A DNA stretch of 64,000 bases from Cyanophora paradoxa CCMP329. Its lineage: Eukaryota > Plantae > Glaucophyta. Location: NCBI GenBank assembly GCA_004431415.1, contig QPMI01000185.1, positions 53,646-117,645 on the forward strand, given 5' to 3'. Made by a program: the position numbers and the translations under genes. The notes under the pieces are model-generated. The model did no database searches and was not told the DNA's origin. It worked only from the letters and a program-made list of their open reading frames with translations. Of this stretch, positions 29,677-64,000 are shown one piece after another (position 1 is the first letter of the stretch; each line of letters begins with the position of its first letter).

Positions 29677-30593
29677 TCTAATTTGCGGGCGAGGCCAAGG
29701 CGGCGAACTCATGATCAATATGTCCTCGTGAACGTGTACGAAGTACTAAGCTAGATCGACTACGAACTTCGGAAGTGGCAGCCTTTTTTGTCTCTGTAAA
29801 CGCAATCATTGAATTGGGCGGCGGATTTCGCGGAATTTGCGGATTTCGCGGGCCGGGGGGGGTGGGGGGTCATTGCGTATATATATCGGATTGCGCTCGA
29901 GGGAATTGCAATCGAGGGGCGGAGGGGCTAGTTTTTTTTTTGCAAAAATGGACGTCGCATTGATACACCACGGCACATGTATCAATGTTCTACGTGACGT
30001 GCCCTTCCGACCGGTCACCTATCTAGCCGAAGATGCTAGCGAGGTGCCGGCCATGGGTCGCTCAATATGGGAGGTTCGCCTGAGTGGGGGAGCCATGGTT
30101 TTGAGGGGCGGAGGGGCTAGAGCTCGAGAGAGTTTTGTTCGAATTCGAGATTCCTGCGATTGAGCGCATGCAGGATCGCGGAGCCCCGAACTCGAGGGAG
30201 AGCTAGCTATAGGGAGACGCTCAATCGAAAAGAGGGGAATTCGAAGGCCCGGAGGGGGAGGGGGATCGCGATCGAGGAAGAGGGGGGGGGGAGGGGGGGG
30301 GAGGGGGCGAGGAGAAATTTGCCGCCAAAGCAAATTCGAAAAGCCTGCCGCCCGCGGCCAGGAGCAGCGGCAGCGTGCGGGCGGAGGCTAGGAGCTGCGC
30401 CCGCTCATCAACAGCTGCAGGTTCGTTCGATTGCTACTCATTCGTTTCTCGCGTGTCGATCGGTCATCATGGCATCGAGATTCATGCAACTCGCATGCGC
30501 TCCTGCAGGCCGCATCGGAATTGCAGCCTTCTTGGTCAGGGCCTGCAGCTGGCCTCCTTGGCTACGCTGCGGTCTTCGTAGCGACGGCGAAAA

Positions 30594-33500
30594 ATGCCGG
30601 AATTCGAATTGCAAGCGCCAGCGGGGGAAGGCCCGACCTCGTCTCGCAGAAATGTCAATGCTCCTCCTGCATGCATACTAGGCCTATGCGCAGCAGGCGA
30701 GCCCGCGGCCGTTGTGCCTAGGCCTGCTGTCAGCAAGCTTCGCATGCATTTGCGCAAGCTCGCGGCGTCGGCGCCGGCGCCGGTCGTACGCGTCCTGGCG
30801 TCAACTTCAGCGGCGGTGCCGGCACCAGCAGCATCTGCCTCATTTGATCCAAGGCAGAAGCCAAAGAGCCGGCCGCGGCAGCCTCTCCAGGTTTTGCACT
30901 TGTCAGCCTCGAGCTCCGCAAACTCAGGCGCAATCAGCAGTATGCGTACGTATACTGGTGTCGACGCCCTACTCCAGCATGCGCAAGCGAAGAAGAAAAG
31001 GGCTTTGATCACGAAGCCAGTGACGGTGAGTTCGCGCCCGCGCGTATTGAATTCAAGCTCTTTGATAGCGTTATCGACCATTAAAATTAATATTGATGTT
31101 TCGAAGGTTATTGATGTCATCTCGGATTCGGAGGACGTCGACCATGCGAAGCAGAAGACAGTCGACGTCGAAGCAATTGCAAGTCAGCAGAACAAGATCG
31201 TCGTTTCCTACGATGGTGTCACGGGGCTGATTGTGCGCATCCCTGCAGATCGTGAAATGTTTCTCATGATGTATATATTTTTCATAACGTGCCCGTGCAG
31301 ATCGTCAAGGAAAGCGATCTTGGGTACTATGAAGATGGCCAGATGCTCAACGATGTGAACGTCGATTTCGGAATCAAGTAGGCATCATTTTGAAAATCTT
31401 CGTTATATAATTATACACCAGTCTAAAATTTTTGTCCGCAGCGCTCTGCACAAGCACGTCAGCGCCCGGCTGCAGACGACTGAGCAAGGAGGCCAACCGA
31501 AGTTTTTTTTCTTCAGCTCATACTCCTACACTTCTCTTTGTGAGGTTTGGCACTTCGCTTTCAAGCCTTGTACATGTACGGATTCGCTTTTCTGATCTTC
31601 AAAAATTTAACTATAAGCTGCATGGCCATGAGAAGTTCTGGCGGAAAATCCGCACGCTCGAGAAAATCCAGGGCTTGAGAATGCTGGAAGCGATGTACAT
31701 CTTCTTCCCAATTCATTCGCCGTGCGTGTTTTTCAGATTTGTCATCGATTTATTTAGCTATATAGATTGTTTCAGATTTCTCTTTGTAGCTGATTTGTGT
31801 GTCGCAGGCTCCACTGGTCGTTGGCAATCATTTGCAATCTGTCTCACTTTGTCAGCGCTATCCAGAACAACGTCAAACCTGATGCATCAAAGCGCAACCA
31901 GCCTATCATCATGCACTTGAATAGCGCTCAGAACAAGGAGTTGACAACGACTGTCGGTAGCAACCTGGCAGAGTGAGTTCGCGCACGCGCGTTAACGTTT
32001 GGTTTTTTGCTTGCTATCTAGAAAGTGATGAGCGAGCGCGCAGAATGCTCCGCAACGAGCTCATCAAGTATTCGAAGCTAAATGCAGATATCGATCTGGA
32101 GCTCCGACAGTTTTTGAATTCGAATGACTCAAGCGATTTCGCGGAGTCTGTTCGCATTGTTGAAGTAAAGGTATATATTTCACATTCATGCTCTGGTGAT
32201 TTGAAATTCGCGATCGATTCATGGGGTTGCGGGGCTTATGTATATTTTATGCATGCAGGTCCCCCAGCAGGACAACGCCGTTGACTGCGGCATCTACATG
32301 TTTGAGAATCTGATCGGTTTCGCTCATGAGCCGTTCATTCCGGATCCTGACCTTGAGCAAGGATACGTACGTTGACGTCCTGCTTCATATATATGTTTTG
32401 TGATTATATGCATTCCTCATAAAATATCGCTTTTAAATAGGGAGATATCTGGAAGAGTCGGGAGCCTTACGGCACGGAAGTCATTCGCGAGAGGAGGCGA
32501 GCTTGGCGGGAGCTCGCAGTGGAACTGGGCCACGTCGTCAAATCGAAGGGCGACTTGAAGGAGCACAGATTCTTTGATCCCTCAGCGGCAGCACGGGTGG
32601 AGACTCAAATACTCACCCAGGCATTCCAGGCCCCTTCCCGACTCGGGTTCCCGGCTGCAGCTGCAGGCGCTACCCGACAATCAGTGCGCTGATTTAATTT
32701 TGAGTGCGCGCGATAGTGCGAATAATGCTTCTTCTGATTGAGACATTTCTCATGAGTCTGCAATCGAGACGCGAACGCTCTCGCAAACGCCGGCGCCGCA
32801 GCTGCAGGTCCCTGCATCCCCACACGATGAACAGGCGGGTGCTGTGCGTGTGCTGCAGCTGCTCGAGCTCCTTCGAATTCCGGATCCGACACCCTGCACG
32901 GCAGTTTCCTGTTGCAATTGGTGCTAGTGATCGAAAAGCCTCGAGCCTTGGTATCGACGTCGACGGCGCTGCTGAATCGATGGTCACTCCTCGCCGATCG
33001 CAATCGATATCCGGCGTCAGTCCTAATTATAAATTATATATACCCTGTATTCTCAAAGTCAATGCCGACCGTAATATTAATTACATGTTGCAGGAATCTG
33101 ATGTCGTTGGAGATACTGGCCAAGCAGCTGCTGCAGCCGCGGCCGGTCCTGAAACCGAATCCGAAGGAGCGTCCTTGCAATTGATTGCCACGCGGCGGCT
33201 CGGAGACATCGGGACGCCGCCAGCGACTGGTCTCCGGCACGATCAGAAGCGCGTCCGAGACGTCCAAGAAGGCTCGAGCTCCGGCTCGATCGAAATCTCA
33301 GCCCCAACTAGTACTGGTACTGCTGCGCCGGTGAGCAAGTAATTATATGTATACACTATTGCTTGCACTATCATTCGAATTAAACGCTTGCAATTACATG
33401 CAGACATCGGGAGGTGAAGTGCAGCAGTCGGGAGCTCGAGGGGAAGGGCTCAATCTCATCTCTGCTTTCCAAGCTTCAGGCGATGCGCACGCGAACTCGA

Positions 33501-36500
33501 TATCGCCAGCAGCTGCAGCCGAGTCAGATAACGCAGTGCGCTTTCATTTCCCATTCAACGGTCTCTTTTTAATGAGATCTTAATCCGCCATATGCATGCA
33601 CATTCATGGCTTTATTTATTTTCGGAGTTCAGAACGCACATGATCATGATCATGATTCCAGCCCGGTGCCCGCTCTTGAGGTACCGCACCTGATTAATTC
33701 ATGCACGTGCACATGCGTATATACGTAGACTGAAACATTCATTTCCGAACGTGCAGCCTCTCGTTGTCGATGCAAATCTTGGAGGCCTAGGGCTGGAACG
33801 AGAAATTGCCGAAGCGGGAATTCAAAGCTTGAATTCCCCGCGGCCGCAGCAACCGCACGACCCTCGAGCTCTGATTCAGAATAATTATAACAACGTGCGC
33901 TCTCTTTCCCTCTCCAAAAGCATTCGAATTCGCGCAATCAAATGAAATCTATGCATATTGCAAGGTTGCACTCCCGGCATCACGTGCACGCGTACGGGTG
34001 CCTGTTGAGCAACGTGCGAGCTCCTGGGCGAACGACATGGAGAGGTTGGCGCCGGCTGCAGAGCAACCTGCGTCAATTGCAACGTTCAGCGTCGGTGCTT
34101 CGGGCAGTGGAGCAGCGCCGGCGCCAGCGGAACCTGCAATCGCCAGCGGAGCAGCGGGATCGCAGCCTACAGCTGCAATCGCCAGCGGAGCAGCGGGATC
34201 GCAGCCTGCAGCTGCAATCGCCAACGGAGCAGCGGGACCGCAACCTGCAATCGCCCACGAGCAGCCAAAGCGGCACGTGCACGGAACCCGTGCTCGTGGC
34301 CGTGGTAAGAAGAATCTTGCAGTGCGAGCCAGGACGATCACCCCTTCTGCACGAGTGATGCTGAAACGAATGGTGTGTTAAAATAAAAAACCGTTGAACA
34401 GCTCGCTTTAATTTGAGATTTAGAAATTGCTTTCAATTCGAAATTGATTGGACTGGCCATGTTGCAGCTGCAGGGTTTGCCGCTGAAAACTCCAACGAAA
34501 CGAATTAACATCGTCTCGGATTCCTCTGCCAATGCGGTGCAGGGCCCGGAGTCAAGTGCACCTTCCCCTCCGGATCCTGCCGCGGCCAACCTCCCAAGCT
34601 TAAGGGCGCCAGAGGAGGCATCGTCTGTTGCAATGGGGTGCGTAAACGGCCGCGGTATAACTATATATATAGCTATATAGCTACGTATACAGCCGTCTCA
34701 TCGCTTCGAATATATACGTAATTATATATAATTCAAGCTGACCCGCATGAAAGCTCTCTGCAGCTGGCTCAAATTCCGCAGTCGACGTCGACGTCAGACG
34801 TTGCACATGCATTTTCAGAAATCGATCCGGATCCAAAGGAAGTACCTGCGCACGAAACACCTCCACAGGTGCAGGGGACACCTCCCCAGACGATGTTCAT
34901 GGCGGCCGCTTCCAACAACGTCAACTCCGAGCTCGAGGCATCGTCGCCTGCAGATCCATCAGTTCTTGAACATGAACTTCTCGGCACTGCACAACCTGTA
35001 CATGTTCAGGAAGTGGCGCCGGCGCAGGACGTTCCAGCCCCTGTGCATTTGCATGCGCAGCCGGCGCCAGTCCCTGTCTCGGAGCTCAATTGCACGCTCG
35101 AGGCTCTCGCCATCGTTTCAGTACAGCCTCCAGCACAGCCAGCAGCTGCAGCCCCCACGGTACCATTCCAGCTGGACAGCGAAGCACAACGAGCTGCAGT
35201 CGCCCATGGACAACCAATTGCAAGCGCCCCGCTCGCACATGCTGAGTCTGATGCAGCTGCGGCTGGTCCATCAATGCAGAAGCCATCCAATGCAGAAGCC
35301 GACTTCAGCTCTGCAAAAGTCTCAGAAACATCTCGAGTCCCTCTTCGGATTCAATTACCACCAGCTGCAGTTCGTCCTTTATATATAATTACTCAGATTG
35401 GCAATTGCAACGCCTATTATAATTAATATATTTAAATGTGCAGCCCGTTGAATTTCCTGTCTTTTAATACTTTCTCAGGCACCGATGCGGGTCAAATGTG
35501 GAGAGCCCCAGTTACTGATCGGAAACAACTCATCCTTCGTTCAGCCAGATATCGATGTCGAAGCACGCGTCTCGCAACTGCACGAGTCCGCTGCAGGCGC
35601 ACTCTCCGCGGCCGAGGCACGCTTCCCACGCGAATTAAATTAAATCTCGATAAGATAGTTTGACATGCGTTGACTCCTCCGGCAGATTTCGCTTCCGCAA
35701 CTGCCTCTCGCTGTTTCAAGCTCGAGCTCCCGTGTGCAGGACCCCGCGCATGCACATGCAGCTGCATCTGCCCGCCCAGTCGCCCCGCGGCTGGGTGCCG
35801 GCACCCACGCCCACGTGAGCGCGCACCATATGCATGCCCCGTCTGCAAGCATATTCGGGAATACAGGCCTCGACGACAAGCGCAAGGTGCGCCGCATGGC
35901 CCTGGATATTCCATTAATATTCAACATGAACTCGTTCATCACCTTTCTGAATATCTCTTTTAAATCGAATTGACAGGAATCCGTCAAACGAAGGATGATT
36001 TTATTGAGCCGAGATCTTTGTTTGGCTTCCCCGGAAGAACAGGCCGTCATCCTTTCGAGCTTTTTGTACGTTCTCAACCGGCGAGGCTTTGATTTTGCGG
36101 GCCGCTGCGTTCGCTTCATTGTGGGCCAAGGTGCACTGATCATGATCATGAACTGGCGTTTTGCCTTTCAAGTTTTGGGAATCCGCAAACAAAGACTATC
36201 AATCGCGAAGCTATAATTTAATTTCATGTCCCATCCCTCATTCGCGATATTTCGTGCAAACGTATTTAACGCTAATACGTTGTCTCATTCACGCTCAGCA
36301 TTCTCAAGCGGGGGACTTTCCGGAGAATTTCTGCAGTGCATTGAAGACCTGCGAGACTCCCAGCTCTTTTTCTATGCCCACGAGCTATCCAGCTACCGCG
36401 AGGCATCAAAATTTGATTTGGTACCGTATACATGCAACCGTCTTCCTCGCTTTTAACGATTCTATATCGCTAATATTTGATCGATTCGCAGTCAAAACTA

Positions 36501-36752
36501 AATGTGCACGAGGGTGCACGAACAGAGCTGCAGGCTACGGGTGCGGATGTACGCTTGGCGTGGGCCCTGAAGCCCTCCGTCCAGTCTTCAGTTGCGGAGG
36601 TCGCAGTCGTAACCCGAGGCAGAGCCGCCAAAGTGAGTCGCCGCGCGGGAAAAACAACGCTTCCAGCTATCACTAATTTATGTAAACCAGCTTCAGGGAT
36701 TGCCGCCAGGAGTCCAGGAGAAATCCTTTCGATGGATGCAAGAAACCCTTAA
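30594..36752 (+). CDS. Ulp1/SENP-like C48 cysteine protease gene with long Ala/Pro-rich downstream exons; 3' extent uncertain, possibly transposon-borne
   Basis: Spliced GQMLNDVNVDFGI, FFFFSSYSYTSL, YIFFPIHSP|LHWSLAIICN, IMHLNSA, VPQQDNAVDCGIYMF. The His, Gln and Cys catalytic motifs of Ulp1 peptidases are present. Confidence 0.75.
34133..34255 (+). repeat. 39-bp coding tandem repeat x3 (AIASGAAGSQPxA)
   Basis: ctgcaatcgccagcggagcagcgggatcgcagcc repeated. Confidence 0.85.
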
Positions 36753-37700
36753 AGGAAGTTCCAAAGCCACCCTGTGAAAATGATGATGAATATTAATCGG
36801 AATCGAATTCGGGCTTTTAGGACAATCGCCTTTTACGGGCTTTTTCAGGGAAGAAGAAGATAACCACGGATCAATCTACTTGGCCATATATCACGAGTTC
36901 GATATCGATAGGACCACTGCATGCGCAACAACCACTAGTACTAGCACTAAATCACTGAAACAAAAGAACCGGAGTAGAACTATGTAAACCGGATTGCTAT
37001 ATATAAATTATAGATCAACTCCGTATTGCGATAATAATAATGTAGGAGGCGTAGTTTTGCCGGATATTTCAATTGCCGTAAATTGCCGAGACGCAGAATT
37101 GCCGAGACTAATTGCAGAATTTATCGCCAGAGTAATTCCGGTTTTGGAGGAATTCGGCAATTCAAGAGCGCGGCAATATTTTATTTTGCAATTGCCTGCT
37201 AAAGTAGCAGTGAACATTGCAAGGGGGGAAAAGAAGACCGAAGGTCTCCCCCCCCTTGCTTCCCGTTCCCTCGCTTCAGCCAAAATTCTCCAGTTTGCAA
37301 CGCAGGAAAAAAATGAGCCAAAATGGCGTTGCGACACGTGTTGGTCGCTGGGAGCGTGCACGCAAAAAGCGGTTTTCGAGGGGGAAAACCAGTTTTCTCT
37401 CTTTCGATCTTGTCGTCTCTTCGCGACAGCTCTCATCTCCTCTCTCCAGTCTGCAGCTGCAGTCAGAACTCGAGTCTAGAGCAGGTTGCCCGGCGGTCTG
37501 CAGGAACTCGGGGAAAACCAATTTCTAGGCTCTAGATGTAGATCTGAGCTCTCCGGGCCTCTCCTTCGCGCGGCGCTGGGGTGTAACGCGGCGGTTTTGC
37601 ATGCCAACCACTTCTACCAGCGCTAGCTGTCTCCTCTAAATTTTGCGCGGCATGCGCAGTCACTGAGTCCAGACTGTAGCTAGTCTCTTGCTGCGCTCAG

Positions 37701-38131
37701 CAAGCCGCCGACATCGCGCGGCAGGATCGCTTCGTCGTTCGCTTTGTCGGGTGCGTGAACATTCATTCAACTGGACTGCCCATATCTAGATCTCACCTCT
37801 GTTTCATGATTGCCACGGCAGGCCTGCGATCGAGGACCTCCACATGGGAGTCCTCAACCGCCTCCGTGACGCCGGCCTCGCGGATATCGAAATTCAAGAC
37901 CTTGTCTACCAGATGCGCGGCGGGAGCGAGCAGCGCGCCAGCCGCGTGGCTCTGCGGGGACTCGAAGCGGCGGGCCGCCTCACCATGCTCTCGCAGGACG
38001 GCTCTCTTCAGGACCGGCGCCGCTGGCTGCCGCTCACCCCCATGTTCGACTTCCGCCCCGACCCCCTCCAGAAGGCCTGGATCGCCTATGTTTACGGCGA
38101 GCCCTCTGCAGACAGCACCATCATCTTTTAG
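37701..38131 (+). pseudogene. Last two exons of an unknown gene, amplified in each 686-bp unit
   Basis: cag|QAADIARQDRFVVRFVG|gtgcgt..ggcag|PAIEDLHMGVLNRLRDAGLADIEIQDLVY...STIIF* splices in frame. Confidence 0.45.
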
Positions 38132-39360
38132 CCTGCTGTTCAGGGTTAGGGGTAGGCCGTGCAAACACAGTTGATGCGCAGAGTTTTTTCGCTCCAGAAC
38201 AATCTTTCATATACAGTGCGCTCAATCTCGCCGTTCATTCAGGCTTTTCTTTATTCGGTTAGATCGCAGCGTCTGCTTATCAGCCCTTTTCTACTCTTTA
38301 CAATCACATATAATCTGTCTCTATCTTTACTACTTCAACCTGCCGCGCGCGCTGGGCCGGGGTCGATCTACATCTGCCCCGTGCATGTTCGTGCCAACAT
38401 CGCGCGGCAGGATCGCTTCGTCGTTCGCTTTGTCGGGTGCGTGAACATTCATTCAACTGGACTGCCCATATCTAGATCTCACCTCTGTTTCATGATTGCC
38501 ACGGCAGGCCTGCGATCGAGGACCTCCACATGGGAGTCCTCAACCGCCTCCGTGACGCCGGCCTCGCGGATATCGAAATTCAAGACCTTGTCTACCAGAT
38601 GCGCGGCGGGAGCGAGCAGCGCGCCAGCCGCGTGGCTCTGCGGGGACTCGAAGCGGCGGGCCGCCTCACCATGCTCTCGCAGGACGGCTCTCTTCAGGAC
38701 CGGCGCCGCTGGCTGCCGCTCACCCCATGTTCGACTTCCGCCCCGACCCCTCCAGAAGGCCTGGATCGCCTATGTTTACGGCGAGCCCTCTGCAGACAGC
38801 ACCATCATCTTTTAGCCTGCTGTTCAGGGTTAGGGGTAGGCCGTGCGAACACAGTTGATGCGCAGAGTTTTTTCGCTCCAGAACAATCTTTCATATACAG
38901 TGCGCTCAATCTCGCCGTTCATTCAGGCTTTTCTTTATTCGGTTAGATCGCAGCGTCTGCTTATCAGCCCTTTTCTACTCTTTACAATCACATATAATCT
39001 GTCTCTATCTTTACTACTTCAACCTGCCGCGCGCGCTGGGCCGGGGTCGATCTACATCTGCCCCGTGCATGTTCGTGCCAACATCGCGCGGCAGGATCGC
39101 TTCGTCGTTCGCTTTGTCGGGTGCGTGAACATTCATTCAACTGGACTGCCCATATCTAGATCTCACCTCTGTTTCATGATTGCCACGGCAGGCCTGCGAT
39201 CGAGGACCTCCACATGGGAGTCCTCAACCGCCTCCGTGACGCCGGCCTCGCGGATATCGAAATTCAAGACCTTGTCTACCAGATGCGCGGCGGGAGCGAG
39301 CAGCGCGCCAGCCGCGTGGCTCTGCGGGGACTCGAAGCGGCGGGCCGCCTCACCATGCTC

Positions 39361-39462
39361 TCACACATATGAATATTCATATTTTAATCCTGAGGCGGAA
39401 CTCATATTTTAATCCTGAGGCGGAACGCCGAGGGATTAAAATATGAATATTCATATGTGTGA
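39361..39462. repeat. Opened hairpin telomere: 30-bp perfect inverted repeat with an imperfect GGCG-GAA-CGCC apex
   Basis: tcacacatatgaatattcatattttaatcc (39361-39390) is the reverse complement of 39433-39462. Apex 39419-39429; 25-bp direct duplication at 39377-39401/39402-39426. Confidence 0.9.
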
Positions 39463-39463
39463 T

Positions 39464-39687
39464 TCGATGTTATATCAATAAAATCGATTAATTTATTTGA
39501 ATTTGCACATGAATTTGCATATTTTATATGCATTTTCAATTAATTTAATCGATGTTATATCGATAAACTCGATTAATCGATATTGTATCTTAATTAGAGT
39601 TAATCGGAATTATATCAATAACTTCGATTGATCTTAATTGAATTCTAAATGAATCTAATCGGAATTATATCAATAAATTCGATTAAA
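39464..39687. promoter_or_regulatory. Four ~29-bp dyad iterons next to the hairpin (candidate origin or resolution sites)
   Basis: TCGnnnTTATATCrATAAnnTCGATTrA at 39464, 39549, 39604 and 39659. Confidence 0.65.
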
Positions 39688-40367
39688 TCATGTTCTTTTC
39701 CGATTAAATCAATTAAATATTCAACTTTGTGAACTCTTAGTCTCCTTGAATTTCTTAAGATGACTCAACTTAGTCAACTTAGTCAACTTTGTTACCATAA
39801 TCAATCAGGGTGGACTCACTTTTAGATCAACTTTGAAATTTCAAGCAAAATCAACTTTGATTTCAAAAGTGGATCTCCTAAGTGGACTCAAAATGTTCAC
39901 TTTGTGATACATGTTTGCTCAAATCCTTACTGTTTATGGTCAGGGTTGACTAAGTGGGGGGAGTTGACACATTTTTTGAAATCCTTTTTAGAAAACTTTA
40001 GGTCCCAAATATTTCCTGTGAAATTTGAGTCAACTCAACCCACTTATTCAACCCTTGCATTGAATTCGTAACATAATCCATATACTTTTACTACTTTTAC
40101 GATTAATATGAGTCAACCTTGAGTCCACTTTAATATAAATATTATATAATAGGGGGAATGAAGGGGAGATGCTGAGCTTTATTGTAAGGAAATCGAATAG
40201 TATTCGAAATACTTGACATTGCTTAATGTAGGGTGCATTCATATTTCGGCTACATCATACAGTAGAATTTCTATCGTAAAGAATGACCGGAATCCGGAAA
40301 ATAATCATTGTAGAAAGCTATTGTAATAAAAAATGTAAATCACCCTGATCATCATTATAGAAACCCA

Positions 40368-40766
40368 TCAAAACGGAAATCTTTCATGTTTATGTCTCTC
40401 AGTCTTCTCAAATGTGAGGAAATTCATTGTTTTATCGATCTCATCTGCAACTGCTTGTGTTTTATGCTGAGCTTCTTTACCACAACTGAATATATCAATT
40501 GCTAACATGCCTTCATTGGAATAACAATGAGCTGTACAATGGCTTTCATCTAATAGCAGAACCAATGCAAAACCAGGAGGTGATAGTTTGCCATCAAATA
40601 TCTCACAATGCTTATGAACAATCCTAATACCTTGTCTCAATATAGCTTGTTCAAGGGTTCCCATAATCCAATTACCTAGGAAGCTAACATGCTCATGTCC
40701 TGTTGCAATAGCTGATTTAGCTTTGTAATCAAGCATAATATAAAAGCCTCTGTATTTAGTCTCCAT
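40368..40766 (-). CDS. speH: Prokaryotic-type (class 1b) pyruvoyl S-adenosylmethionine decarboxylase proenzyme, viral
   Basis: 132 aa; PPGFALVLLLDESHCTAHCYSNEGMLAIDIFSCG contains the E-SH autocleavage site and the DxFxCG motif. Confidence 0.9.
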   Translation of the reverse strand: METKYRGFYIMLDYKAKSAIATGHEHVSFLGNWIMGTLEQAILRQGIRIVHKHCEIFDGKLSPPGFALVLLLDESHCTAHCYSNEGMLAIDIFSCGKEAQHKTQAVADEIDKTMNFLTFEKTERHKHERFPF

Positions 40767-40795
40767 TAAGAATACCTTAGAAAAATTAATTAAAC

Positions 40796-41068
40796 CTAAT
40801 CGAACCTAATGCAAACATCCCTATATTCCACTGTGAATGATGAAGTAGCCCTTTTCCTATGTGCTTGACTTTTTCTTTTATTACAGTCCCTACACCCTGA
40901 TCCCTTCACATGATTAAAGGGATAGGTTAGGATCACCTTGTTACACTGCAAACATCTAACAGATACCTTCTCTTGAGCTTTGATGTAATGTGTCTCACTG
41001 TAATCGAATTTATCTTTACCATGGACTGTCATAGCAGCATCAATAAACTTTTTTGTTTTACTATCCAT
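40796..41068 (-). CDS. Small Zn-ribbon protein (DUF723-like domain of phage/giant-virus endonuclease-associated proteins)
   Basis: FIDAAMTVHGKDKFDYSETHYIKAQEKVSVRCLQC...PFNHVKGSGCRDC. Confidence 0.7.
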   Translation of the reverse strand: MDSKTKKFIDAAMTVHGKDKFDYSETHYIKAQEKVSVRCLQCNKVILTYPFNHVKGSGCRDCNKRKSQAHRKRATSSFTVEYRDVCIRFD

Positions 41069-41090
41069 ACTCTATATATAATCAACATTC

Positions 41091-41924
41091 TTATGGAGCA
41101 GTATCCTGCCCAAAAATGGGGAAATATCGATTTGTCCCATAGTATTCAGCATAGGTATTCTGCTTTGCAATAAAATCGGTTCTCTCTGCAAACATCACAC
41201 ATTTGTAGATACCAAACTTGGTGGCTCTAACCAGAAACTGATAGTCTTCCAAACCGAAATTGACTCCATGATAAGCAATTCCGAAATTATCATATGGGGT
41301 GATCACAACTGCAAAGTTGGGAGTTCCACCTTCAACTTGGCATACAGCATATACATCTGGTGGAATATCCACAACTACCTTGTAGTGGTCACCAATCTCA
41401 ACAAGAGAGTCTACTACTGCTGTTTGTTCATTCACAACAATGGGGAATATCTTTATAATGTATGGGGCATTCATGCTGGGGACATAGGTTCGAATTCTTG
41501 TGTTGGGATCAATGGGATTGGGTTGATCATTCACAAATAGAGGCGCTCCAACAGCCCCACCAACCCTAAGACCATCACCAATATAAGCTCCCCCCGATTT
41601 GCAGTTAATAGCTCCCGACCTAGATTCAAAAGAATAAGTAGACAGAGGATCTCCATAGCTATCTGGGTCTCCATAATGAGCAGAAAAGTTTGCATTTGTG
41701 ACAAGTAGCTTAGTTGTCTTAACTATTCCATTATTTTTATCACATCTGAGTTCCTGTAATCTCAGCTTGTGGGTGGAACCAAATGTATTCATTGTAGGTT
41801 GGACCTCTGTGGATTGGAGACCTTCCACATCATCAAAAGTAGCATGCTGTAAAACATGGTTTGCTGGGGCAGCTAATGATAGCTGTGGTGTAATAATTCG
41901 TTCAAGTGGGGGTTGCTCAGCCAT
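41091..41924 (-). CDS. Viral fibre/spike-like structural protein, paralogue A
   Basis: 277 aa, intronless. SGGAYIGDGLRVGG beta-repeat; C-terminal DIPP..VVITPYDNFG..F.V..AERTD resembles phage tail-protein C-terminal domains. Aligns with the neighbouring gene. Confidence 0.6.
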   Translation of the reverse strand: MAEQPPLERIITPQLSLAAPANHVLQHATFDDVEGLQSTEVQPTMNTFGSTHKLRLQELRCDKNNGIVKTTKLLVTNANFSAHYGDPDSYGDPLSTYSFESRSGAINCKSGGAYIGDGLRVGGAVGAPLFVNDQPNPIDPNTRIRTYVPSMNAPYIIKIFPIVVNEQTAVVDSLVEIGDHYKVVVDIPPDVYAVCQVEGGTPNFAVVITPYDNFGIAYHGVNFGLEDYQFLVRATKFGIYKCVMFAERTDFIAKQNTYAEYYGTNRYFPIFGQDTAP

Positions 41925-41947
41925 TTTACATTAAAGGGATATATCTT

Positions 41948-42793
41948 TTATGGGGTTGGGTCATCAATTACATCTGGTTCCGAATAAAACCCTGTTTGAG
42001 AAAGAGTATCAGGAGTAACACCTCTTAGAGCTGAGACAGCAGCTATATCTGTTCTGATACCCATAACTGTAATTGTATATTTTCCAATATCTGTAACAAA
42101 CAGATCATAGGTGAAATTGTTATTATAAACACAGAATCCTGTGCCAAAATTATCATATCCTTGAACATTGAAATTGTATCTGTGACCTGGCTGGTTATTG
42201 TTGGCTCTACATAAAGAAAGCATTGCAGAAGGAATGACCAGCCCTCTCATTACTCTTTTGGTTCCTTCAATCAATTCAGAGTTTTCAAGTGTGACAGTAT
42301 AACCTTGGTAAAATTGAATAAGTGGCTGTTGTGCAACTGGTATATATAATCGAATTCGTTGGGGGTCTTCAACATTCTGTTCAAGAGTATCTGGGACATC
42401 ATTATACGAAATTGAGGATGAAAGCTGACCTGAAACTCTGCAACCTCCACCAATAAAAGCTCCTCCTGATCTCACAGTAACAGCTGCAGAATTCTTATCG
42501 AAATCAAGGGCTTTCAGATCAACACTGTAAGCATCAGGACCTCCATTTGTAGGTTGGAAGAAGTTTGCATTTGTGACAAGAAGTCGAGTTGTTTTCACCA
42601 CACCTGAATTCTTATCAGCTCTCAGCTCTTTAACTCGAATAATCGAATTTTTATCAAAGGAGTTACCATTGGAGTTGGGTCTCTCTGTGGATTCTAAACC
42701 GCGAACCTCATCATTAACTTCATGCTGGCGAAAGTGCATAGCAGGGGATCCAAGGGAATATATTGGAAGTTGAACTCGATTATATTCACCCAT
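41948..42793 (-). CDS. Viral fibre/spike-like structural protein, paralogue B
   Basis: 281 aa; shares D(D/E)VxGLxSTE, ELRxDKNxGxVKTTxLLVTNANF, SGGAxIGxGxRVxG, YDNFG and RTD with paralogue A. Confidence 0.6.
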   Translation of the reverse strand: MGEYNRVQLPIYSLGSPAMHFRQHEVNDEVRGLESTERPNSNGNSFDKNSIIRVKELRADKNSGVVKTTRLLVTNANFFQPTNGGPDAYSVDLKALDFDKNSAAVTVRSGGAFIGGGCRVSGQLSSSISYNDVPDTLEQNVEDPQRIRLYIPVAQQPLIQFYQGYTVTLENSELIEGTKRVMRGLVIPSAMLSLCRANNNQPGHRYNFNVQGYDNFGTGFCVYNNNFTYDLFVTDIGKYTITVMGIRTDIAAVSALRGVTPDTLSQTGFYSEPDVIDDPTP

Positions 42794-42842
42794 TGCTTCT
42801 TTTACTAAGAAGGAAAGAAAAATAAAGCGCTTTGTGAGTTAA

Positions 42843-45800
42843 TTATGGTATTCCATATGCTGTCCAATGGATAGTGCATGTGATACTTCGGCTTGAAGAT
42901 AGAGTAGGGGATGCTATGAATGTCACATAGATAGTGGTATATGTAGATGTGGAGTTTGAGATTCCAATTCTAAAATCTACATCTCCGGGGTTTGTTGCAG
43001 GAGTTCCTTGAAGTGTGGCATTTACAACAGGTGTTTGTGTGTAAAAAGCAGGATTCCAATGTAAAACATATGCATGCTGTGTGTCTTATCACACCACTTG
43101 TAGCTTCGTATTTTCCTGATTTGAAACGTCTTTCTATATCATACCATGTTGGAAGTTGGCTAATTGTGTTGGTTGTTCCCGCATTCATTGCATAAAATGC
43201 TCTCGCATAAGCATTTCCGCGACACAGTAGGGTTTATCATAGAAGTTTGCTGAATTGTGGAAGAACCAAGTCTCCTCATTTGTCGGTGATGCGGGCGTTA
43301 CTATTGAACCTGATCCTACATACATGGTATTGTTGGCTGTGATTGTGTTGGCTGTGAATGGGTCTAAACTTGGGAAATCCGTGATTTCTGATTTTGTGTG
43401 AGTATGGGCGAAATCTGTGATATTTGCCTTTGTGTGTGTATGTGCAAAATCTGTGATATCTGATTTTGTGTGAGAGTGAGGACCGACAGTCGTAGAAGCT
43501 GTTGGCTTTCCGTATATATTATCCCAATGGAAGTAACCACTGTGTGACGATATAGCGGGGTTTTTGCTCCAACCAACAGTTATCGGACCTGGAAGATAAA
43601 TTCTTTTCGAGCGACTAAATATAATTTTTGGACGAGAACCATCAGTAGCGCTTACATCTGTTACATTCACTTGCAAAATGGCGTCTTTGTCATCATAAGT
43701 TGCTGGATCAGATGGTAGCGGTGGTAATCCTGCTGTAACTGGGATGTCTTCATTATAATAACTTGTAAGATAAATACCCGGTTTGGTATCTATCAATGCA
43801 TCACCACCTGCTGCTACTAATGTTGTTCTTGTGGGTTGTTTAATGTATAATTCGCCTTCCATAGTTGTTCCCGCATCTATTCCTTTGCGATTCAGGTAAT
43901 ATTCACTTAATTGTAATCTTTCAGCGATAGTATCACTCTGATAGAAACTAACCCCATAAAATCCATCACCATTTACTAAATCACCTGCCGATGCAAAACG
44001 TGGTTTTTCATCTATTTGACTCCATGGGTGCCTGTGGTTAGAGTTTGTAATTTCGGAATAATCATGAGTGTGTGCAAAATCTGTGATCTGATCTTTGGTG
44101 TGAGTATGGGCAAAGTCTGTGATCTGATTTTTTGTGTGAGTATGGGTATTAGGAGGAAAGGTTGAAGGTTTCAAAGCCACATTGTCCCAATGAACGAAAC
44201 CAACCTCATTGTCGGTTGCTCTTTGTCGGCTCCATCCCAAATGCCTGTAAAGTGGATTCTGCCCTTCACACCTTTTATTATTATCTTTGTGTAAAACTCA
44301 CAGTTTATTGATGTAAACATAATTGCATTAACGATTCCATCTTCAAGAGCGCTATTCTGAACGGCTTGATAACAATTTACTCGTTTGAGAAAATGCTGAT
44401 ACCCATTTACAGTCTGACCATAAATATCAAAGTATCTACAATTAGACCACTTCACGTGCTGCATGTAAAATGATTTCATACCTTCCGGAACTGTCCATCT
44501 CATCCAATAGCTGCTACAATCAGCATCATTTTCAACAAAAGTATAAATACTTCTCTGACCTGTTCTATATGTTGTCCCCAATAACCAGTTCCCTGCATTG
44601 TCAGTAGAATAGGCTGTTAAGACAATATCGAAATCATAACCTTTTGGTATTGTGGTTCCATCAATTTGTAAAGTGGTAGCATTCACAGTTCCTGTTACAG
44701 TTCCACCTGTGAGAGGTAGATAATTAGCAAGTGCCGCCGTTAATTCGGTATCTGTAACAAAATCTGTAACAGCTAACTGTAATTCTGTATTTGTAACATA
44801 ATCTTTGTTTTCTAAGTAATCATCTGTAACGACACCGGAAAGGGTTGTATTGTGTAAGTTTTTTGCCGCCATTCTCTGATTGACTTCTAAGGCGCCTCCT
44901 GTTGTCGTTTTAATCCACGCCATCTCACATTTCCCGTGATCATCATATGGTTGTCCCGCAAGTGGGACGTAATTGAATTTCGAGCGACTAAATATAATTT
45001 TTGGACGAGAACCATCAGTAGCGCTTACATCTGTTACATTCACTTGCAAAATGGCGTCTTTGTCATCATAAGTTGCTGGATCAGATGGTAGCGGTGGTAA
45101 TCCTGCTGTAACTGGGATGTCTTCATTATAATAACTTGTAAGATAAATACCCGGTTTGGTATCTATCAATGCATCACCACCTGCTGCTACTAATGTTGTT
45201 CTTGTGGGTTGTTTAATGTATAATTCGCCTTCCATAGTTGTTCCCGCATCTATTCCTTTGCGATTCAGGTAATATTCACTTAATTGTAATCTTTCAGCGA
45301 TAGTATCACTCTGATAGAAACTAACCCCATAAAATCCATCACCATTTACTAAATCACCTGCCGATGCAAAACGTGGTTTTTCATCTATTTGACTCCATGG
45401 GTGCCTGTGGTTAGAGTTTGTAATTTCGGAATAATCATGAGTGTGTGCAAAATCTGTGATCTGATCTTTGGTGTGAGTATGGGCAAAGTCTGTGATCTGA
45501 TTTTTTGTGTGAGTATGGGTATTAGGAGGAAAGGTTGAAGGTTTCAAAGCCACATTGTCCCAATGAACGAAACCAACCTCATTGTCGGTTGCTCTTTGTC
45601 GGCTCCATCCCAAATGCCTGTAAAGTGGATTCTGCCCTTCACACCTTTTACTATTATCTTTGTGTAAAACTCACAGTTTATTGATGTAAACATAATTGCA
45701 TTAACGATTCCATCTTCAAGAGCGCTATTCTGAACGGCTTGATAACAATTTACTCGTTTGAGAAAATGCTGATACCCATTTACAGTCTGACCATAAATAT

Positions 45801-48800
45801 CAAAGTATCTACAATTAGACCACTTCAAGTGCTGCATGTAAAATGATTTCATACCTTCCGGAACTGTCCATCTCATCCAATAGCTGCTACAATCAGCATC
45901 ATTTTCAACAAAAGTATAAATACTTCTCTGACCTGTTCTATATGTTGTCCCCAATAACCAATTCCCTGCATTGTCAGTAGAATAGGCTGTTAAGACAATA
46001 TCGAAATCATAACCTTTTGGTATTGTGGTTCCATCAATTTGTAAAGTGGTAGCATTCACAGTTCCGGTGACAGTTCCACCTGTTAGAGGTAGATAAGCAT
46101 GAGTATGTGAATCCGGAGGGAAGGTTAACGGAGGATTTGTAATTTCTTCCCAGAAATGCTTATGGGCGAAATCTGTTATTTGCGCTTTGGTGTGTGTGTG
46201 GTTTTGTATCCAACCTTGAACCACATTTGACGTTGGATGATGAGGAAGATTAGCATTACTTGTTACAGTAAGATTATCAATCACTGTCTCGGGTGATGTG
46301 ATCTTTAATCCCCTGTAAAAGATCAGAGGTTGAGTAATTGGAAATCCATACATTTGTTGAATATAATACCTCACATCACGTTTTTCATCATTTGTCAATG
46401 CTCTGTTGAATACTATAATTTCGGCAATACTACCCCCATCAGTTAGCCCAAGTCCAAAGAAGTTTACTCTGGAATAAGGTAAATAATTAGTCTGTGTAGC
46501 AGTTTTGATCTCTACACCATTCAAACCTACTGTATAAGAATCGGAAGTGATTGTTTGGTCTATGTAATACCATTTATTTAGCATAGAAGGAACAGTGATA
46601 GAAGGGGTTGCTTGTAGCGCATTTGATATTACAAAACTTGTCATTCCAAGTGTTGTATTTGACTTGATACCATATTGAACAGTTCTGTTTGGTGATTCTG
46701 TCCTCATTATTCGTAGATGATCAACAACACTGGGTGACTGGTTGTATTTACCTATCGCAAAGTATGTGAATCCTAATGACCAATCTATTGTTACATCTGG
46801 ATAGGAAAATGCAGCCATACTGTCTACGGAAGGAGTTGTTATAGTGAATTGGTTATTGATTTCTGTATTTGATGTAAAATATGTAGTGTTTCCCGAAGCC
46901 ACTTTTATTGATGGAATCAAAGCATTTGGGACTCTATTGAAAAGATTAGAATTGAATGCGGATTCACCGTGAACACCTGATGCTTTCCATGCACAAAGAC
47001 AATTTGGAATATTAGAAGCGGGGTCATTGCTTGCTGTGATGCGGTAGTAATCTTTGTTAAATTCTTGCAATGTGTTTACATTCGCTGAGCCAATCGTAAG
47101 AACTCCATTCACTTTTAAATTACTCGTCTCTATATTGCTACTGTAAATATTACAATTAACCGTAAGGTCTCCTGTGATTGTCCCACCAACAAGCGGAAGA
47201 TATTTTGATAATTCATTTGCAAGTTCAGGTTTTGTTACATAATCTCCAAGCATAGCAAGAGTTACGAAATTTACAAGTATTACAGCAGTAAGGTAATCTT
47301 CTGTTACAATTCGTGAAATATCTTCATTGTGTATGTTTTTGGCGCTTGCCCTTTGATTGATTTCTAATAAACCTTCACCAACATCACCGTTATAATTTGT
47401 TTTTATCCATGCTACCTCGCATCTTTCGTAACTATCACGATCTCCTATAAACGTTTTTGGTAAAAGACGCTGCCGACTAAATATTAATTTCGGTCTCGAT
47501 TGGTCAAAATCGCTAACATCTGTTACATTAATTTGTATTGCTGCATCTTTGTTATCGCAACTATTTGGATCTAATGGAAGTGACGGTAGCGGAGGTAATA
47601 CATTTGTCATCTCGATATCCTCAGGGTAGTAGCTTGTTAGATAAATCCCGGGTTTTGTCTCATACAAACCAAAATTACCACTAATTGGTAAAATCCCTTC
47701 TCTTCTTGGCGGTCTAATGTATAATTCGGCTTCCATTCCTGTGCCTGCTTCTATTCCCATGCGATTAAGGTAGTGGTCATTTAATTGTAATCTTTCTGGT
47801 ATTGTATTACTTTGGTAAAGACTTACGCCATGTTGGAAATCTGTTAATAAATTTCCTGCTGATGCGAAAGTAGGTTGTAAGTCGATTTCGTCCCAATTAT
47901 GCCTATGGTCTGCTGGTGGAAATTCTCCCGGTATCCCATCAATTTCACCCCAATCATGCCTGTGATCCTCTGGGGGATACTTTGGAGGTTTGCCTAAGAT
48001 CTCATCCCAATCATGATTGTGATCCTCTGGGGGATACTTTGCAGGTTTATTATTAATTTGTTCATAATCAGGAAAGAACTCCCAGATCTCAGGTCGAAAT
48101 CCATCTGGTAACAATTCCTCATGGGGTTCATAAGGTTGCTCATAGTCAACAGCTGGTGGATCATGACCATCTGGCAAATACTCCTCATCAGGTTCATAGT
48201 TCTGCTCATACTCAAACTCTTGTGGATCTAAGCCATCTGGTAGTATCTCCTCCTCATTGGGATCAAACTGATCATATTCATATTCTTGTGGGTCAAAACC
48301 ATCTGGTAAATACTCTTCCTCATCTGGGACGAAATGATATTCATCAAGCTCTAATATATCGACTTCAGGAGGTAAATACTGCTCATCTATTTGCTTTTTT
48401 GGTTCAATTATAGGTTTATTGCGAACTTGCTCCCAACTCACAATATGCTGCCCAAAAGGAACTGTCTCATCTGCTGTGTATTCTCTTCCAGGCTGCTTTT
48501 TCGGTGTTAAATCCGGTGGATCCCATGGAAGAGGGAAGGGAACTGGGACAGGTCCATAATACTCAAAGATCTCTCTTATGGTCTTCTCACTTACAAGCTT
48601 CTCACCATTTGCATACACATTGCTGCCATGGATATTTCGCCATTGCCTGGTTCTAATACCAAGGTCTTTCACATTGCTATACAAAGGCAAAAGGTGCCTA
48701 TCCATTTCAACAAGATCAGGATGTAAATGGATTGCTACTGGTTGACTGGGGCTACTGCTGATTGTAATTGATGGCTTTTTTTGATGGACATCTTTTGGAG

Positions 48801-48858
48801 TAAAGAACCCAAAAGGCTCATTCCTTGCAAAGTCATATGTAATATCCTTGGGGTAGAC
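42843..48858 (-). pseudogene. Giant modular viral fibre/adhesin gene (~2000 codons), 5'-truncated at the junction and broken by four apparent frameshifts
   Basis: Frame open from the 48858 junction (VYPKDITYDF...MDRHLLP). Contains acidic EEYLPDGxDP repeats, PPxDHxHxW and HTHTKxQITDF fibre repeats, YLPLxGGTxTG motifs, LamG-like GSIAEIIVFNRALT, and a C-terminal H-type-lectin/gp53-like ...TPVVNATL...IHWTAYGIP*. Confidence 0.8.
43605..46096. repeat. 1119-bp direct duplication inside the fibre gene (43605-44723 and 44978-46096)
   Basis: Offset 1373 bp; only about six substitutions seen by eye. Confidence 0.92.
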
Positions 48859-49246
48859 CTGCAGACAGCACCATCATCTTTTAGCCTGCTGTTCAGGGTT
48901 AGGGGTAGGCCGTGCGAACACAGTTGATGCGCAGAGTTTTTTCGCTCCAGAACAATCTTTCATATACAGTGCGCTCAATCTCGCCGTTCATTCAGGCTTT
49001 TCTTTATTCGGTTAGATCGCAGCGTCTGCTTATCAGCCCTTTTCTACTCTTTACAATCACATATAATCTGTCTCTATCTTTACTACTTCAACCTGCCGCA
49101 CGCGCTGGGCCGGGGTCGATCTACATCTGCCCCGTGCATGTTCGTGCCAACATCGCGCGGCAGGATCGCTTCGTCGTTCGCTTTGTCGGGTGCGTGAACA
49201 TTCATTCAACTGGACTGCCCATATCTAGATCTCACCTCTGTTTCAT

Positions 49247-49702
49247 TTTTTTTTTTTTTGAAGTTTGTGGTGTCATTCCTTACATGCACACCACCCCACC
49301 GTCCGTCACATCCACCGGCACGAGGGCTACTCTACTACTGTGAGCGGGTACGTCGTAGTCCAACTAACTATGTGTCCGGTCTTGCCGAGCCAGTTCTCCC
49401 AGAGCTGATTGTACCCTTCAGACATAATCCTCCGGAGCCTCCAATGGGGCCGCAGCTGAAGATGCGTGTGTCCACAGTCGTGAGTCTTCGGCATGATGTA
49501 CCCAGTTGCACGGTCCTAGTTGCTTGCTTGATGGCTCCTATGCTTGGCCGTGTTGGGACCAGGAGCTCGGTACCCCTTGCGGGGCCCCGAGGTCGGAATT
49601 TCTCCGGGATTTGAAGCGGGTTCGGTAGTTCCGGTCCGGATTCGAACCGGGGTCCTCTGAGCGGTAAGGCCGACACCTTATCCACTCGACTATGCCTCCC
49701 CC
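49247..49702 (-). mobile_element. tRNA-derived SINE (~456 bp) with poly(A) tail and 18-bp TSD
   Basis: Minus-strand head with A box TAGTCGAGTGG (49682-49692) and B box GGTTCGAATCC (49638-49648). Poly(T) on + at 49247-49259. TSD atctcacctctgtttcat at 49229-49246 and 49703-49720. Confidence 0.93.
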
Positions 49703-51814
49703 ATCTCACCTCTGTTTCATGATTGCCACGGCAGGCCTGCGATCGAGGACCTCCACATGGGAGTCCTCAACCGCCTCCGTGACGCCGGCCTCGCGGATAT
49801 CGAAATTCAAGACCTTGTCTACCAGATGCGCGGCGGGAGCGAGCAGCGCGCCAGCCGCGTGGCTCTGCGGGGACTCGAAGCGGCGGGCCGCCTCACCATG
49901 CTCTCGCAGGACGGCTCTCTTCAGGACCGGCGCCGCTGGCTGCCGCTCACCCCCATGTTCGACTTCCGCCCCGACCCCCTCCAGAAGGCCTGGATCGCCT
50001 ATGTTTACGGCGAGCCCTCTGCAGACAGCACCATCATCTTTTAGCCTGCTGTTCAGGGTTAGGGGTAGGCCGTGCGAACACAGTTGATGCGCAGAGTTTT
50101 TTCGCTCCAGAACAATCTTTCATATACAGTGCGCTCAATCTCGCCGTTCATTCAGGCTTTTCTTTATTCGGTTAGATCGCAGCGTCTGCTTATCAGCCCT
50201 TTTCTACTCTTTACAATCACATATAATCTGTCTCTATCTTTACTACTTCAACCTGCCGCGCGCGCTGGGCCGGGGTCGATCTACATCTGCCCCGTGCATG
50301 TTCGTGCCAACATCGCGCGGCAGGATCGCTTCGTCGTTCGCTTTGTCGGGTGCGTGAACATTCATTCAACTGGACTGCCCATATCTAGATCTCACCTCTG
50401 TTTCATGATTGCCACGGCAGGCCTGCGATCGAGGACCTCCACATGGGAGTCCTCAACCGCCTCCGTGACGCCGGCCTCGCGGATATCGAAATTCAAGACC
50501 TTGTCTACCAGATGCGCGGCGGGAGCGAGCAGCGCGCCAGCCGCGTGGCTCTGTGGGGACTCGAAGTGGCGGGCCGCCTCACCATGCTCTCGCAGGACGG
50601 CTCTCTTCAGGACCGGCGCCGCTGGCTGCCGCTCACCCCCATGTTCGACTTCCGCCCCGACCCCCTCCAGAAGGCCTGGATCGCCTATGTTTACGGCGAG
50701 CCCTCTGCAGACAGCACCATCATCTTTTAGCCTGCTGTTCAGGGTTAGGGGTAGGCCGTGCGAACACAGTTGATGCGCAGAGTTTTTTCGCTCCAGAACA
50801 ATCTTTCATATACAGTGCGCTCAATCTCGCCGTTCATTCAGGCTTTTCTTTATTCGGTTAGATCGCAGCGTCTGCTTATCAGCCCTTTTCTACTCTTTAC
50901 AATCACATATAATCTGTCTCTATCTTTACTACTTCAACCTGCCGCGCGCGCTGGGCGGGGTCGATCTACATCTGCCCGTGCATGTTCGTGCCAACATCGC
51001 GCGGCAGGATCGCTTCGTCGTTCGCTTTGTCGGGTGCGTGAACATTCATTCAACTGGACTGCCCATATCTAGATCTCACCTCTGTTTCATGATTGCCACG
51101 GCAGGCCTGCGATCGAGGACCTCCACATGGGAGTCCTCAACCGCCTCCGTGACGCCGGCCTCGCGGATATCGAAATTCAAGACCTTGTCTACCAGATGCG
51201 CGGCGGGAGCGAGCAGCGCGCCAGCCGCGTGGCTCTGCGGGGACTCGAAGCGGCGGGCCGCCTCACCATGCTCTCGCAGGACGGCTCTCTTCAGGACCGG
51301 CGCCGCTGGCTGCCGCTCACCCCCATGTTCGACTTCCGCCCCGACCCCCTCCAGAAGGCCTGGATCGCCTATGTTTACGGCGAGCCCTCTGCAGACAGCA
51401 CCATCATCTTTTAGCCTGCTGTTCAGGGTTAGGGGTAGGCCGTGCGAACACAGTTGATGCGCAGAGTTTTTTCGCTCCAGAACAATCTTTCATATACAGT
51501 GCGCTCAATCTCGCCGTTCATTCAGGCTTTTCTTTATTCGGTTAGATCGCAGCGTCTGCTTATCAGCCCTTTTCTACTCTTTACAATCACATATAATCTG
51601 TCTCTATCTTTACTACTTCAACCTGCCGCGCGCGCTGGGCCGGGGTCAATCTACATCTGCCCCGTGCATGTTCGTGCCACTAGTACTCTTTCATTAGATC
51701 CAGATTCCCCCCTTGCACCCCCGGCGCGCCAAAACGCGGCCGGGCCACTAGTAATTAGAACGAAAGCTATATAGCAGCTATAACGAGAGATACACTCAGA
51801 TCCCTGGGCAAAGC

Positions 51815-63800: not shown

Positions 63801-64000
63801 TGCGTTCTGATTCCCTTCCCAATTAAACAGGACCCGCGCGGCAGCCTGGCTGGGCCCGCGTGCGGTTTCTGATTCCTTCCCCCAATTTAAAATCAGGACC
63901 TGCCGCGCGGGCCAGCCTGCGGACCCCGCGTGCGGTTTCTGATTCCTTCCCAATTTAAATCAGGACCTGCCGCGCGGGGGCCAGCCTGGGCTTGGGGCCC
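51815..64000. repeat. Satellite array of alternating 78- and 73-bp monomers (151-bp dimer) with higher-order repeats; candidate centromeric or subtelomeric DNA
   Basis: caatttaaaatcaggacctgccgcgcggggccagcctg(ggcttgggg|cgga)ccccgcgtgcggtttctgattccc(ttccccc|attctct); starts at 57812, 57890, 57963 and 58041 give 78/73/78 spacing. Confidence 0.97.

Follow-up and report, generated by a model that had tools for sequence, protein, structure and literature searches.

A recurrent terminal palindrome at the tip of an AT-rich virus-like insert in Cyanophora paradoxa

Palindromic and hairpin ends of viral genomes

Terminal palindromes that lie beside host DNA have already been described for endogenous virophages and for one subtype of Polinton-like viruses (PLVs), and the kind of end is thus known. 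According to the available text of a recent preprint, the endogenous virophage subtypes 1, 2, 5 and 6 and PLV subtype 4 of Halocafeteria seosinensis carry such palindromes, which are located within terminal repeats and adjoin target duplications (bioRxiv 10.64898/2026.07.28.741278). The screen described there accepted arms of at least 20 bp with up to 4 mismatches and a gap of up to 10, and a hairpin-priming model was proposed for these ends, which the authors themselves call unconfirmed (bioRxiv 10.64898/2026.07.28.741278). In the accessible parts of the literature, how PLVs and virophages without a protein-primed polymerase copy their ends is treated as an open question, hairpin priming having only been proposed. 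Besides the Halocafeteria preprint, no description of such palindromes was found in the literature searched, most subscription journals being outside the search; flip/flop or terminal resolution in virophages or polintons is mentioned there only in passing, and an endogenous virus of Cyanophora with a hairpin is not among the cases described. Giant-virus insertions and PLVs have been reported in Cyanophora.

Hairpin ends are also found on larger genomes. Vaccinia, African swine fever virus, chlorovirus PBCV-1 and kaumoebavirus have, in the sections of the papers available, incompletely base-paired flip/flop hairpin telomeres (PMC11814242, PMC11788076), and a small duplication near the tip is noted for vaccinia in the accessible part of a further paper (PMC8956199). 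Hairpin ends can also be produced at protelomerase telRL sites, which are known from phage N15 and, as far as the accessible text goes, from an endogenous phaeovirus of Ectocarpus (PMC13236599).

Structure of the palindrome and its insert

The window, that is, the whole stretch of 64,000 nucleotides of Cyanophora paradoxa DNA that was analysed, contains a 9.5-kb AT-rich fragment (39363–48859; GC 0.38 versus 0.58 in the host unit). This insert interrupts a GC-rich 684-bp host tandem unit, the copies of which, to the left (37707–39362, the insertion target) and right (48859–51679), are 99–100% identical on both sides. The left tip of the insert is a palindrome, and all genes in the insert point towards it. 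On the plus strand, the outer arm (39361–39390) is the exact reverse complement of the inner arm (39433–39462), and each of these 30-bp arms, in which 7 of 30 letters are G or C, contains one copy of the perfect 16-bp palindrome ATATGAATATTCATAT (39367–39382 and 39441–39456, respectively). A 25-bp plus-strand tandem duplication (39377–39426; copies at 39377–39401 and 39402–39426) leads into the asymmetric 17-nt apex (39416–39432, plus strand), TGA-GGCG-GAA-CGCC-GAG, which is predicted to fold into a 4-bp GC stem closed by the 3-nt GAA loop, under a mismatched internal loop in which the folding program predicts a T–G pair and keeps GA/GA unpaired. Arms longer than 13 bp occurred in none of 200 dinucleotide shuffles of 39361–40360, as compared with the 30 bp observed, and the folding stability of the tip (z = -11.0) was equalled in 0 of 200 shuffles.

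The first-pass annotation had reported the perfect 30-bp arms with one 16-bp palindrome each, the mismatched apex with its GAA triloop and the 25-bp direct duplication. All of these are present in the sequence, and the predicted fold agrees with a mismatched, hairpin-forming apex. The further statement that the palindrome stops exactly at the host junction holds to within 2 nt but not to the letter: TC at 39361–39362 is shared by the arm and the host unit in its uninterrupted form, leaving the junction ambiguous by 2 nt. There is a weak hint that the 25-bp duplication is private to the copy in the window and that most copies go without it; the letter at 39401 is left unaligned in two 60-nt contigs that align to 39402–39460 (runs X2 and X12).

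Behind the palindrome lies an AT-rich sub-terminal region (39463–40367; GC 0.22–0.37 per 100 bp) with iterated short motifs and no known gene. It contains a second, imperfect inverted repeat at 39478–39558 (z -3.2, 2/200 shuffles) as well as, at 39509, a third and degenerate version of the nested-palindrome motif, and the letters of other copies differ from those of the window at 39505, 39517 and 39521. Next, and all on the minus strand, come a gene for S-adenosylmethionine decarboxylase (AdoMetDC; 40368–40766, PF02675, E 4e-11), a small zinc-binding module as found in phage HNH and other endonucleases (40796–41068; phrog_681, phrog_559 and phrog_4605, E 2e-8 to 4e-9), two paralogous genes (41091–42793; 277 and 281 aa, 36% identical to each other) that are likely virion fibre-associated and have four unnamed relatives among 1.84 billion representatives, and fibre-like genes with an internal duplication (43185–48859; PHROG tail-fibre matches down to E 4e-10). 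PLV fibre proteins with phage tail repeats have been reported, in the text accessible to us. The duplication inside the fibre genes (43605–44723 and 44978–46096; 99.5% identical, period 1373 bp) gives rise to chimeric fibre genes with swapped heads. The ratio of observed to expected CpG is 0.54 in the insert (39363–48859) versus 1.09–1.11 in host DNA, with TpG at 1.30, and the low CpG is either a viral trait or the result of decay after methylation.

Pfam and PHROG profiles found no capsid, packaging ATPase, integrase, polymerase or nickase gene in the 9.5-kb fragment, and neither Nucleocytoviricota core genes nor a Rep gene were found in it. Several further routes to an assignment were tried. 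AdoMetDC was rejected as a family marker, as its relatives at eight loci are split over four kinds: three PLV-like (L003 and L004 classed with a Pfam check), three giant-virus-like (L005–L007, judged by eye), one phage-like and one bacterial. At L002, L003 and L004, which are small PLV-like contigs, the AdoMetDC gene is located beside A32 ATPase and primase genes. None of the eight loci, on contigs that may not reach the genome ends, has a comparable terminal palindrome. The structure model of the 281-aa protein was set aside as evidence (mean pLDDT 47); the matches of the modelled fold, to viral fibre, tail and collagen-like proteins, have a TM of no more than 0.26. Relatives of the paralogous and long fibre genes with genomic context were confirmed in none of 28, 103, 600 and 2 candidate stretches, an exact search of viral contigs for the arm gave 0 matches, and a feature-based Atlas comparison was uninformative (best 0.77). 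In Rfam, the tip has three microRNA-precursor matches, which are generic hairpins scoring far below the thresholds, and a microRNA reading of the palindrome was rejected on these scores.

At the right junction (48859–48860), the break lies inside a fibre gene, with 1 shared base and 111–113 bp of the host unit missing, and there is no target-site duplication at the window's insertion. Since the palindrome and the gene-free region are on the left, while the last fibre frame stays open to 48859 and its gene is hence cut at the junction, the left end looks like a natural terminus, the right end being a break.

The 684-bp unit (37707–51679) has a high depth in the runs, gave no Pfam match in the one frame tested and carries two insertions here, and its copies show homopolymer-type differences. 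The second insertion, of 455 bp (49248–49702), is located in the next host unit and has a poly-T end and a direct repeat of ~17 bp on both sides; its far end bears what we take to be a tRNA B-box-like motif, and it is likely a SINE on the minus strand, in which neither ARAGORN nor Rfam found a tRNA. Further to the right, 51750–64000 is filled by a long satellite, the units of which alternate between 73 and 78 bp. In the flanking genome, introns are short and eukaryotic genes are present (NELF TH1, part of a DEAH helicase, Ulp1); a search for homologues of a host helicase exon gave no match at the strict cutoff. An intron-rich region of lower GC (30500–37000), in which one exon encodes a Ulp1-type protease (PF02902, E 2e-4 over 35 aa), is possibly part of a large DNA transposon.

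Joins and depth in other copies

Words of the insert are present at 0.42–0.50 in 20 of the 23 public runs listed, all of the same organism. All 23 are available as contigs, and one may be the window's own source; seven different runs of the 20 were compared in two analyses, X19 being in both. The contigs are built from 31-letter words, and the 30-bp arm cannot be phased in them; their depth does not equal copy number, and a stretch left uncovered proves nothing. In four runs, contigs span all 30 of the 30 bins in the first 3.9 kb of the insert and show many variants, and near-identical ends occur at high depth in runs from 2012 and 2024. In X12, a contig across the apex (39404–39454) has 0 differences and a depth of 4176, against 2263 for a body contig. 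In X19, depths are 50 and 61 to either side of the apex, 50 for the outer-arm word 39361–39391, 103 for the body and 3.3 for a contig with a unique flank. With each apex side at about half the body's depth, the X19 values agree with a ratio of one apex to two bodies, which closed hairpins or head-to-head joints would give. Those of X12 do not, and the depth ratio was rejected as a test of closed versus open ends because the two runs disagree. The apex is uncovered at 39398–39424 in X18 and X19, such holes being no proof of absence.

Loose ends in the contigs show where other copies meet foreign DNA. Twelve of the 15 loose-end rows listed (of 16) represent five foreign flanks, each seen in 2–3 of 4 runs, and the remaining three are host-unit or internal variants. 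The five flanks join at 39353, 39360, 39363, 39425 and behind 39463; four of them correspond to an arm length of 28–31, and the one at 39425 is a loop join. With the window's copy included, five of six joins have an arm length of 28–31, and among the 15 of 16 rows listed no join falls at arm lengths of 32–108. Five of six joins in a 4-nt window, with more than 100 detectable positions, correspond to a rough P of 2–4e-5, or ~1e-3, computed alike, when the window and the 39353 flank are counted as one event. No reverse-complement pair, as expected of a target duplication, was seen by eye among the five flanks, a comparison that includes no complete copy.

Together with an apex depth of about the same order as that of the body, the clustered flanks indicate a fixed end, and not one that arose from a single chance nick, from random breakage of a concatemer or as an artefact of the reads. 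The first-pass annotation had proposed an opened hairpin telomere joined to host DNA, and what was found is the tip of a virus-like insert that recurs with clustered joins; the question it raised of whether other copies are opened at the same nucleotide is answered by the shared arm length, and a fold-back limited to a single read is ruled out for the palindrome, as the apex recurs in public contigs. Its idea of a one-off chance nick with P-nucleotide-like unfolding does not agree with joins clustered at an arm length of 28–31.

About six joins are seen where depth suggests tens of copies, which leaves most ends unexplained; contig building may have dropped joins into other repeats, or many ends may be free or concatemeric. 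The window's own junction is not among the best 32 of 223 contig pieces listed, and at 11 of 40 listed variant places the window's letter is absent from the contigs of four runs. Possible reasons are that the window's copy is a minority of low depth and was lost from the contigs, that those cultures lack it or that it is partly in error. The flank joined at 39425 begins with 9 letters that are identical to 48845–48853 in the fibre gene, next to the right break (3 matches in the window, 0.95 expected), and may represent a virus-to-virus join, of a fibre gene to a loop-cut tip, rather than a join to host DNA.

Interpretation and comparison with known ends

On the basis of its structure, its position outside a sub-terminal region that has no genes, its recurring apex and its clustered joins, we regard the palindrome as the fixed tip of an AT-rich virus-like element and likely as the opened double-stranded terminal hairpin of a multi-copy endogenous dsDNA virus, a reading to which we give a probability of about 0.6. 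For such an end, a putative enzyme would nick the hairpin at a set position ~38 nt away from its loop, and copy-through after the nick would yield an open end starting at 39361. The single strand could then refold and prime synthesis, as proposed for the Halocafeteria virophages, and the open end would be the one joined to host DNA. Less firmly, the element would be a small virus that integrates, either Polinton-like or virophage-like, as the many near-identical ends and the series of fibre-like genes suggest.

The window's copy itself may have a more indirect origin. The 39353 flank, with 1 mismatch over 31 aligned letters, has 7 of the 8 host-side letters of the window and then differs; a match of 7 of 8 letters has a chance of 4e-4 to 1.3e-3 per flank, with four flanks compared. 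Most simply, a break in the 684-bp unit could have been repaired by copying from the locus of the 39353 flank via short microhomology, and at somewhat under even odds we consider the window's copy to be such a secondary copy from another locus. Secondary copying would explain the truncation, the loss of host sequence, the missing target duplication and the private 25-bp slip; other readings that agree with the observations are a target preference and a full insertion that later lost part of its sequence.

Alternatively, the palindrome could be the covalently closed, mismatched hairpin telomere of a large Nucleocytoviricota-type virus, with a fixed nick from junction resolution and opened fragments repeatedly captured by host repair; this corresponds to the model of the first-pass annotation, but with the nick at a fixed base. 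Such mismatched AT-rich hairpins with repeats behind them are, in the accessible literature, the ends of poxviruses, asfarviruses, chloroviruses and kaumoebavirus, a small near-tip duplication is seen in vaccinia, three of the eight AdoMetDC loci are giant-virus-like, and the absence of a target duplication, the broken right end and the X19 depths would all fit. However, the high depth of near-identical ends in the 2012 and 2024 runs suits a self-spreading small element, 9.5 kb hold no giant-virus core gene, and the apex is deeper than the body in X12, so that we consider this origin unlikely. It is also conceivable, but still less probable, that the palindrome never forms a hairpin in vivo and is a two-fold symmetric, att-like site for a recombinase or integrase dimer, with the 16-bp palindromes as binding boxes. 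Recombinase sites have an asymmetric spacer between inverted arms, and this layout, the fixed join position and the nested perfect palindromes with their degenerate third copy would be expected of one; also, PLVs with a tyrosine recombinase leave no target duplication, as far as the accessible text goes. Against it, both arms and the spacer are on one side of the join, while recombination within the spacer would split them, as only the 39425 flank does, and the apex spacer has a stem and loop of its own (z -2.7, 7/200 shuffles as stable).

The remaining explanations concern single events and errors. A head-to-head concatemer junction or a chance fold-back, randomly broken and end-joined once, would account for the missing target duplication, the host loss and the random right break in the window's copy, but the joins of four other flanks lie no more than 3 nt from the same position, which speaks against the randomly broken junction that the first-pass annotation had offered as an alternative and makes this origin very improbable. 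That the palindrome or its junction is an artefact of long-read assembly is hardly credible: the homopolymer-type differences among repeat copies suggest noisy reads, and neither the window's junction nor the 25-bp duplication is among the contig pieces listed (best 32 of 223), yet the apex contig in X12 has no differences and the outer-arm word has its own depth in X19, and an artefact could touch at most the duplication or the window's single junction. A protelomerase site was rejected, as the 17-nt apex is asymmetric and lacks a perfect palindromic core, in line with the earlier view that a mismatched apex argues against a protelomerase product.

On the preferred reading of a fixed, opened hairpin, the asymmetric apex is a built-in marker: nick-and-copy predicts both orientations, plain integration of one fixed end predicts one, and with many copies in a much-sequenced organism the orientation is countable on existing long reads. 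The asymmetric apex and the clustered joins thereby add a direct test of the hairpin model, and the mismatched apex with phasing across the 30 bp makes the mechanism testable with long reads. More tentatively, and with rather low probability, the ends could belong to a protist virus family with poxvirus-like mismatched flip/flop hairpins, a site-specific nick 30 bp down the stem and integration by the open end without a classical integrase footprint, most copies in culture being free or concatemeric. If true, this would tie parvovirus- or poxvirus-style end replication to chromosome integration in a cultured host.

The feature is real and well formed and joins a recently described kind of viral end, while its membership in a group would be one by likeness. 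Parvoviruses have terminal hairpins that undergo Rep-mediated terminal resolution, and genomes of ~4–6 kb with a Rep/HUH gene. The nested palindromes would be similar, and a fixed nick with copy-through would give such an open end and two isomers; in contrast, the Cyanophora element exceeds 9.5 kb and has fibre-like genes, and its fragment contains no Rep gene. With the telomeres of poxviruses, asfarviruses and chloroviruses, as described in the accessible texts, the locus shares an AT-rich hairpin with unpaired bases (here in the predicted fold), repeats behind it and genes pointing to the end, but those are closed ends of large free genomes, whereas here an open end is joined to chromosomes at a fixed base. 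As at telRL in the available account, an inverted repeat yielding hairpin ends would be found in an endogenous algal virus; there, however, a perfect palindromic core is located inside the integrated genome, and here an asymmetric centre is at the boundary.

The closest described system appears to be that of the Halocafeteria terminal palindromes, by likeness of working as far as descriptions allow. In both, to judge from the available preprint text, a palindrome marks the outermost edge of an AT-rich viral element that is endogenous to a protist, and the Cyanophora palindrome, with its 30-bp arms, would pass the screen applied there. The end recurs in other copies in both, here on four other flanks at an arm length of 28–31. 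The Cyanophora palindrome is longer, at 77 bp without the duplication versus 52 nt in subtype 5, and has an asymmetric apex and nested palindromes, the preprint text at hand being silent on imperfect palindromes. Finally, target duplications are present in Halocafeteria according to that text, whereas the Cyanophora copy, which is truncated, shows none.
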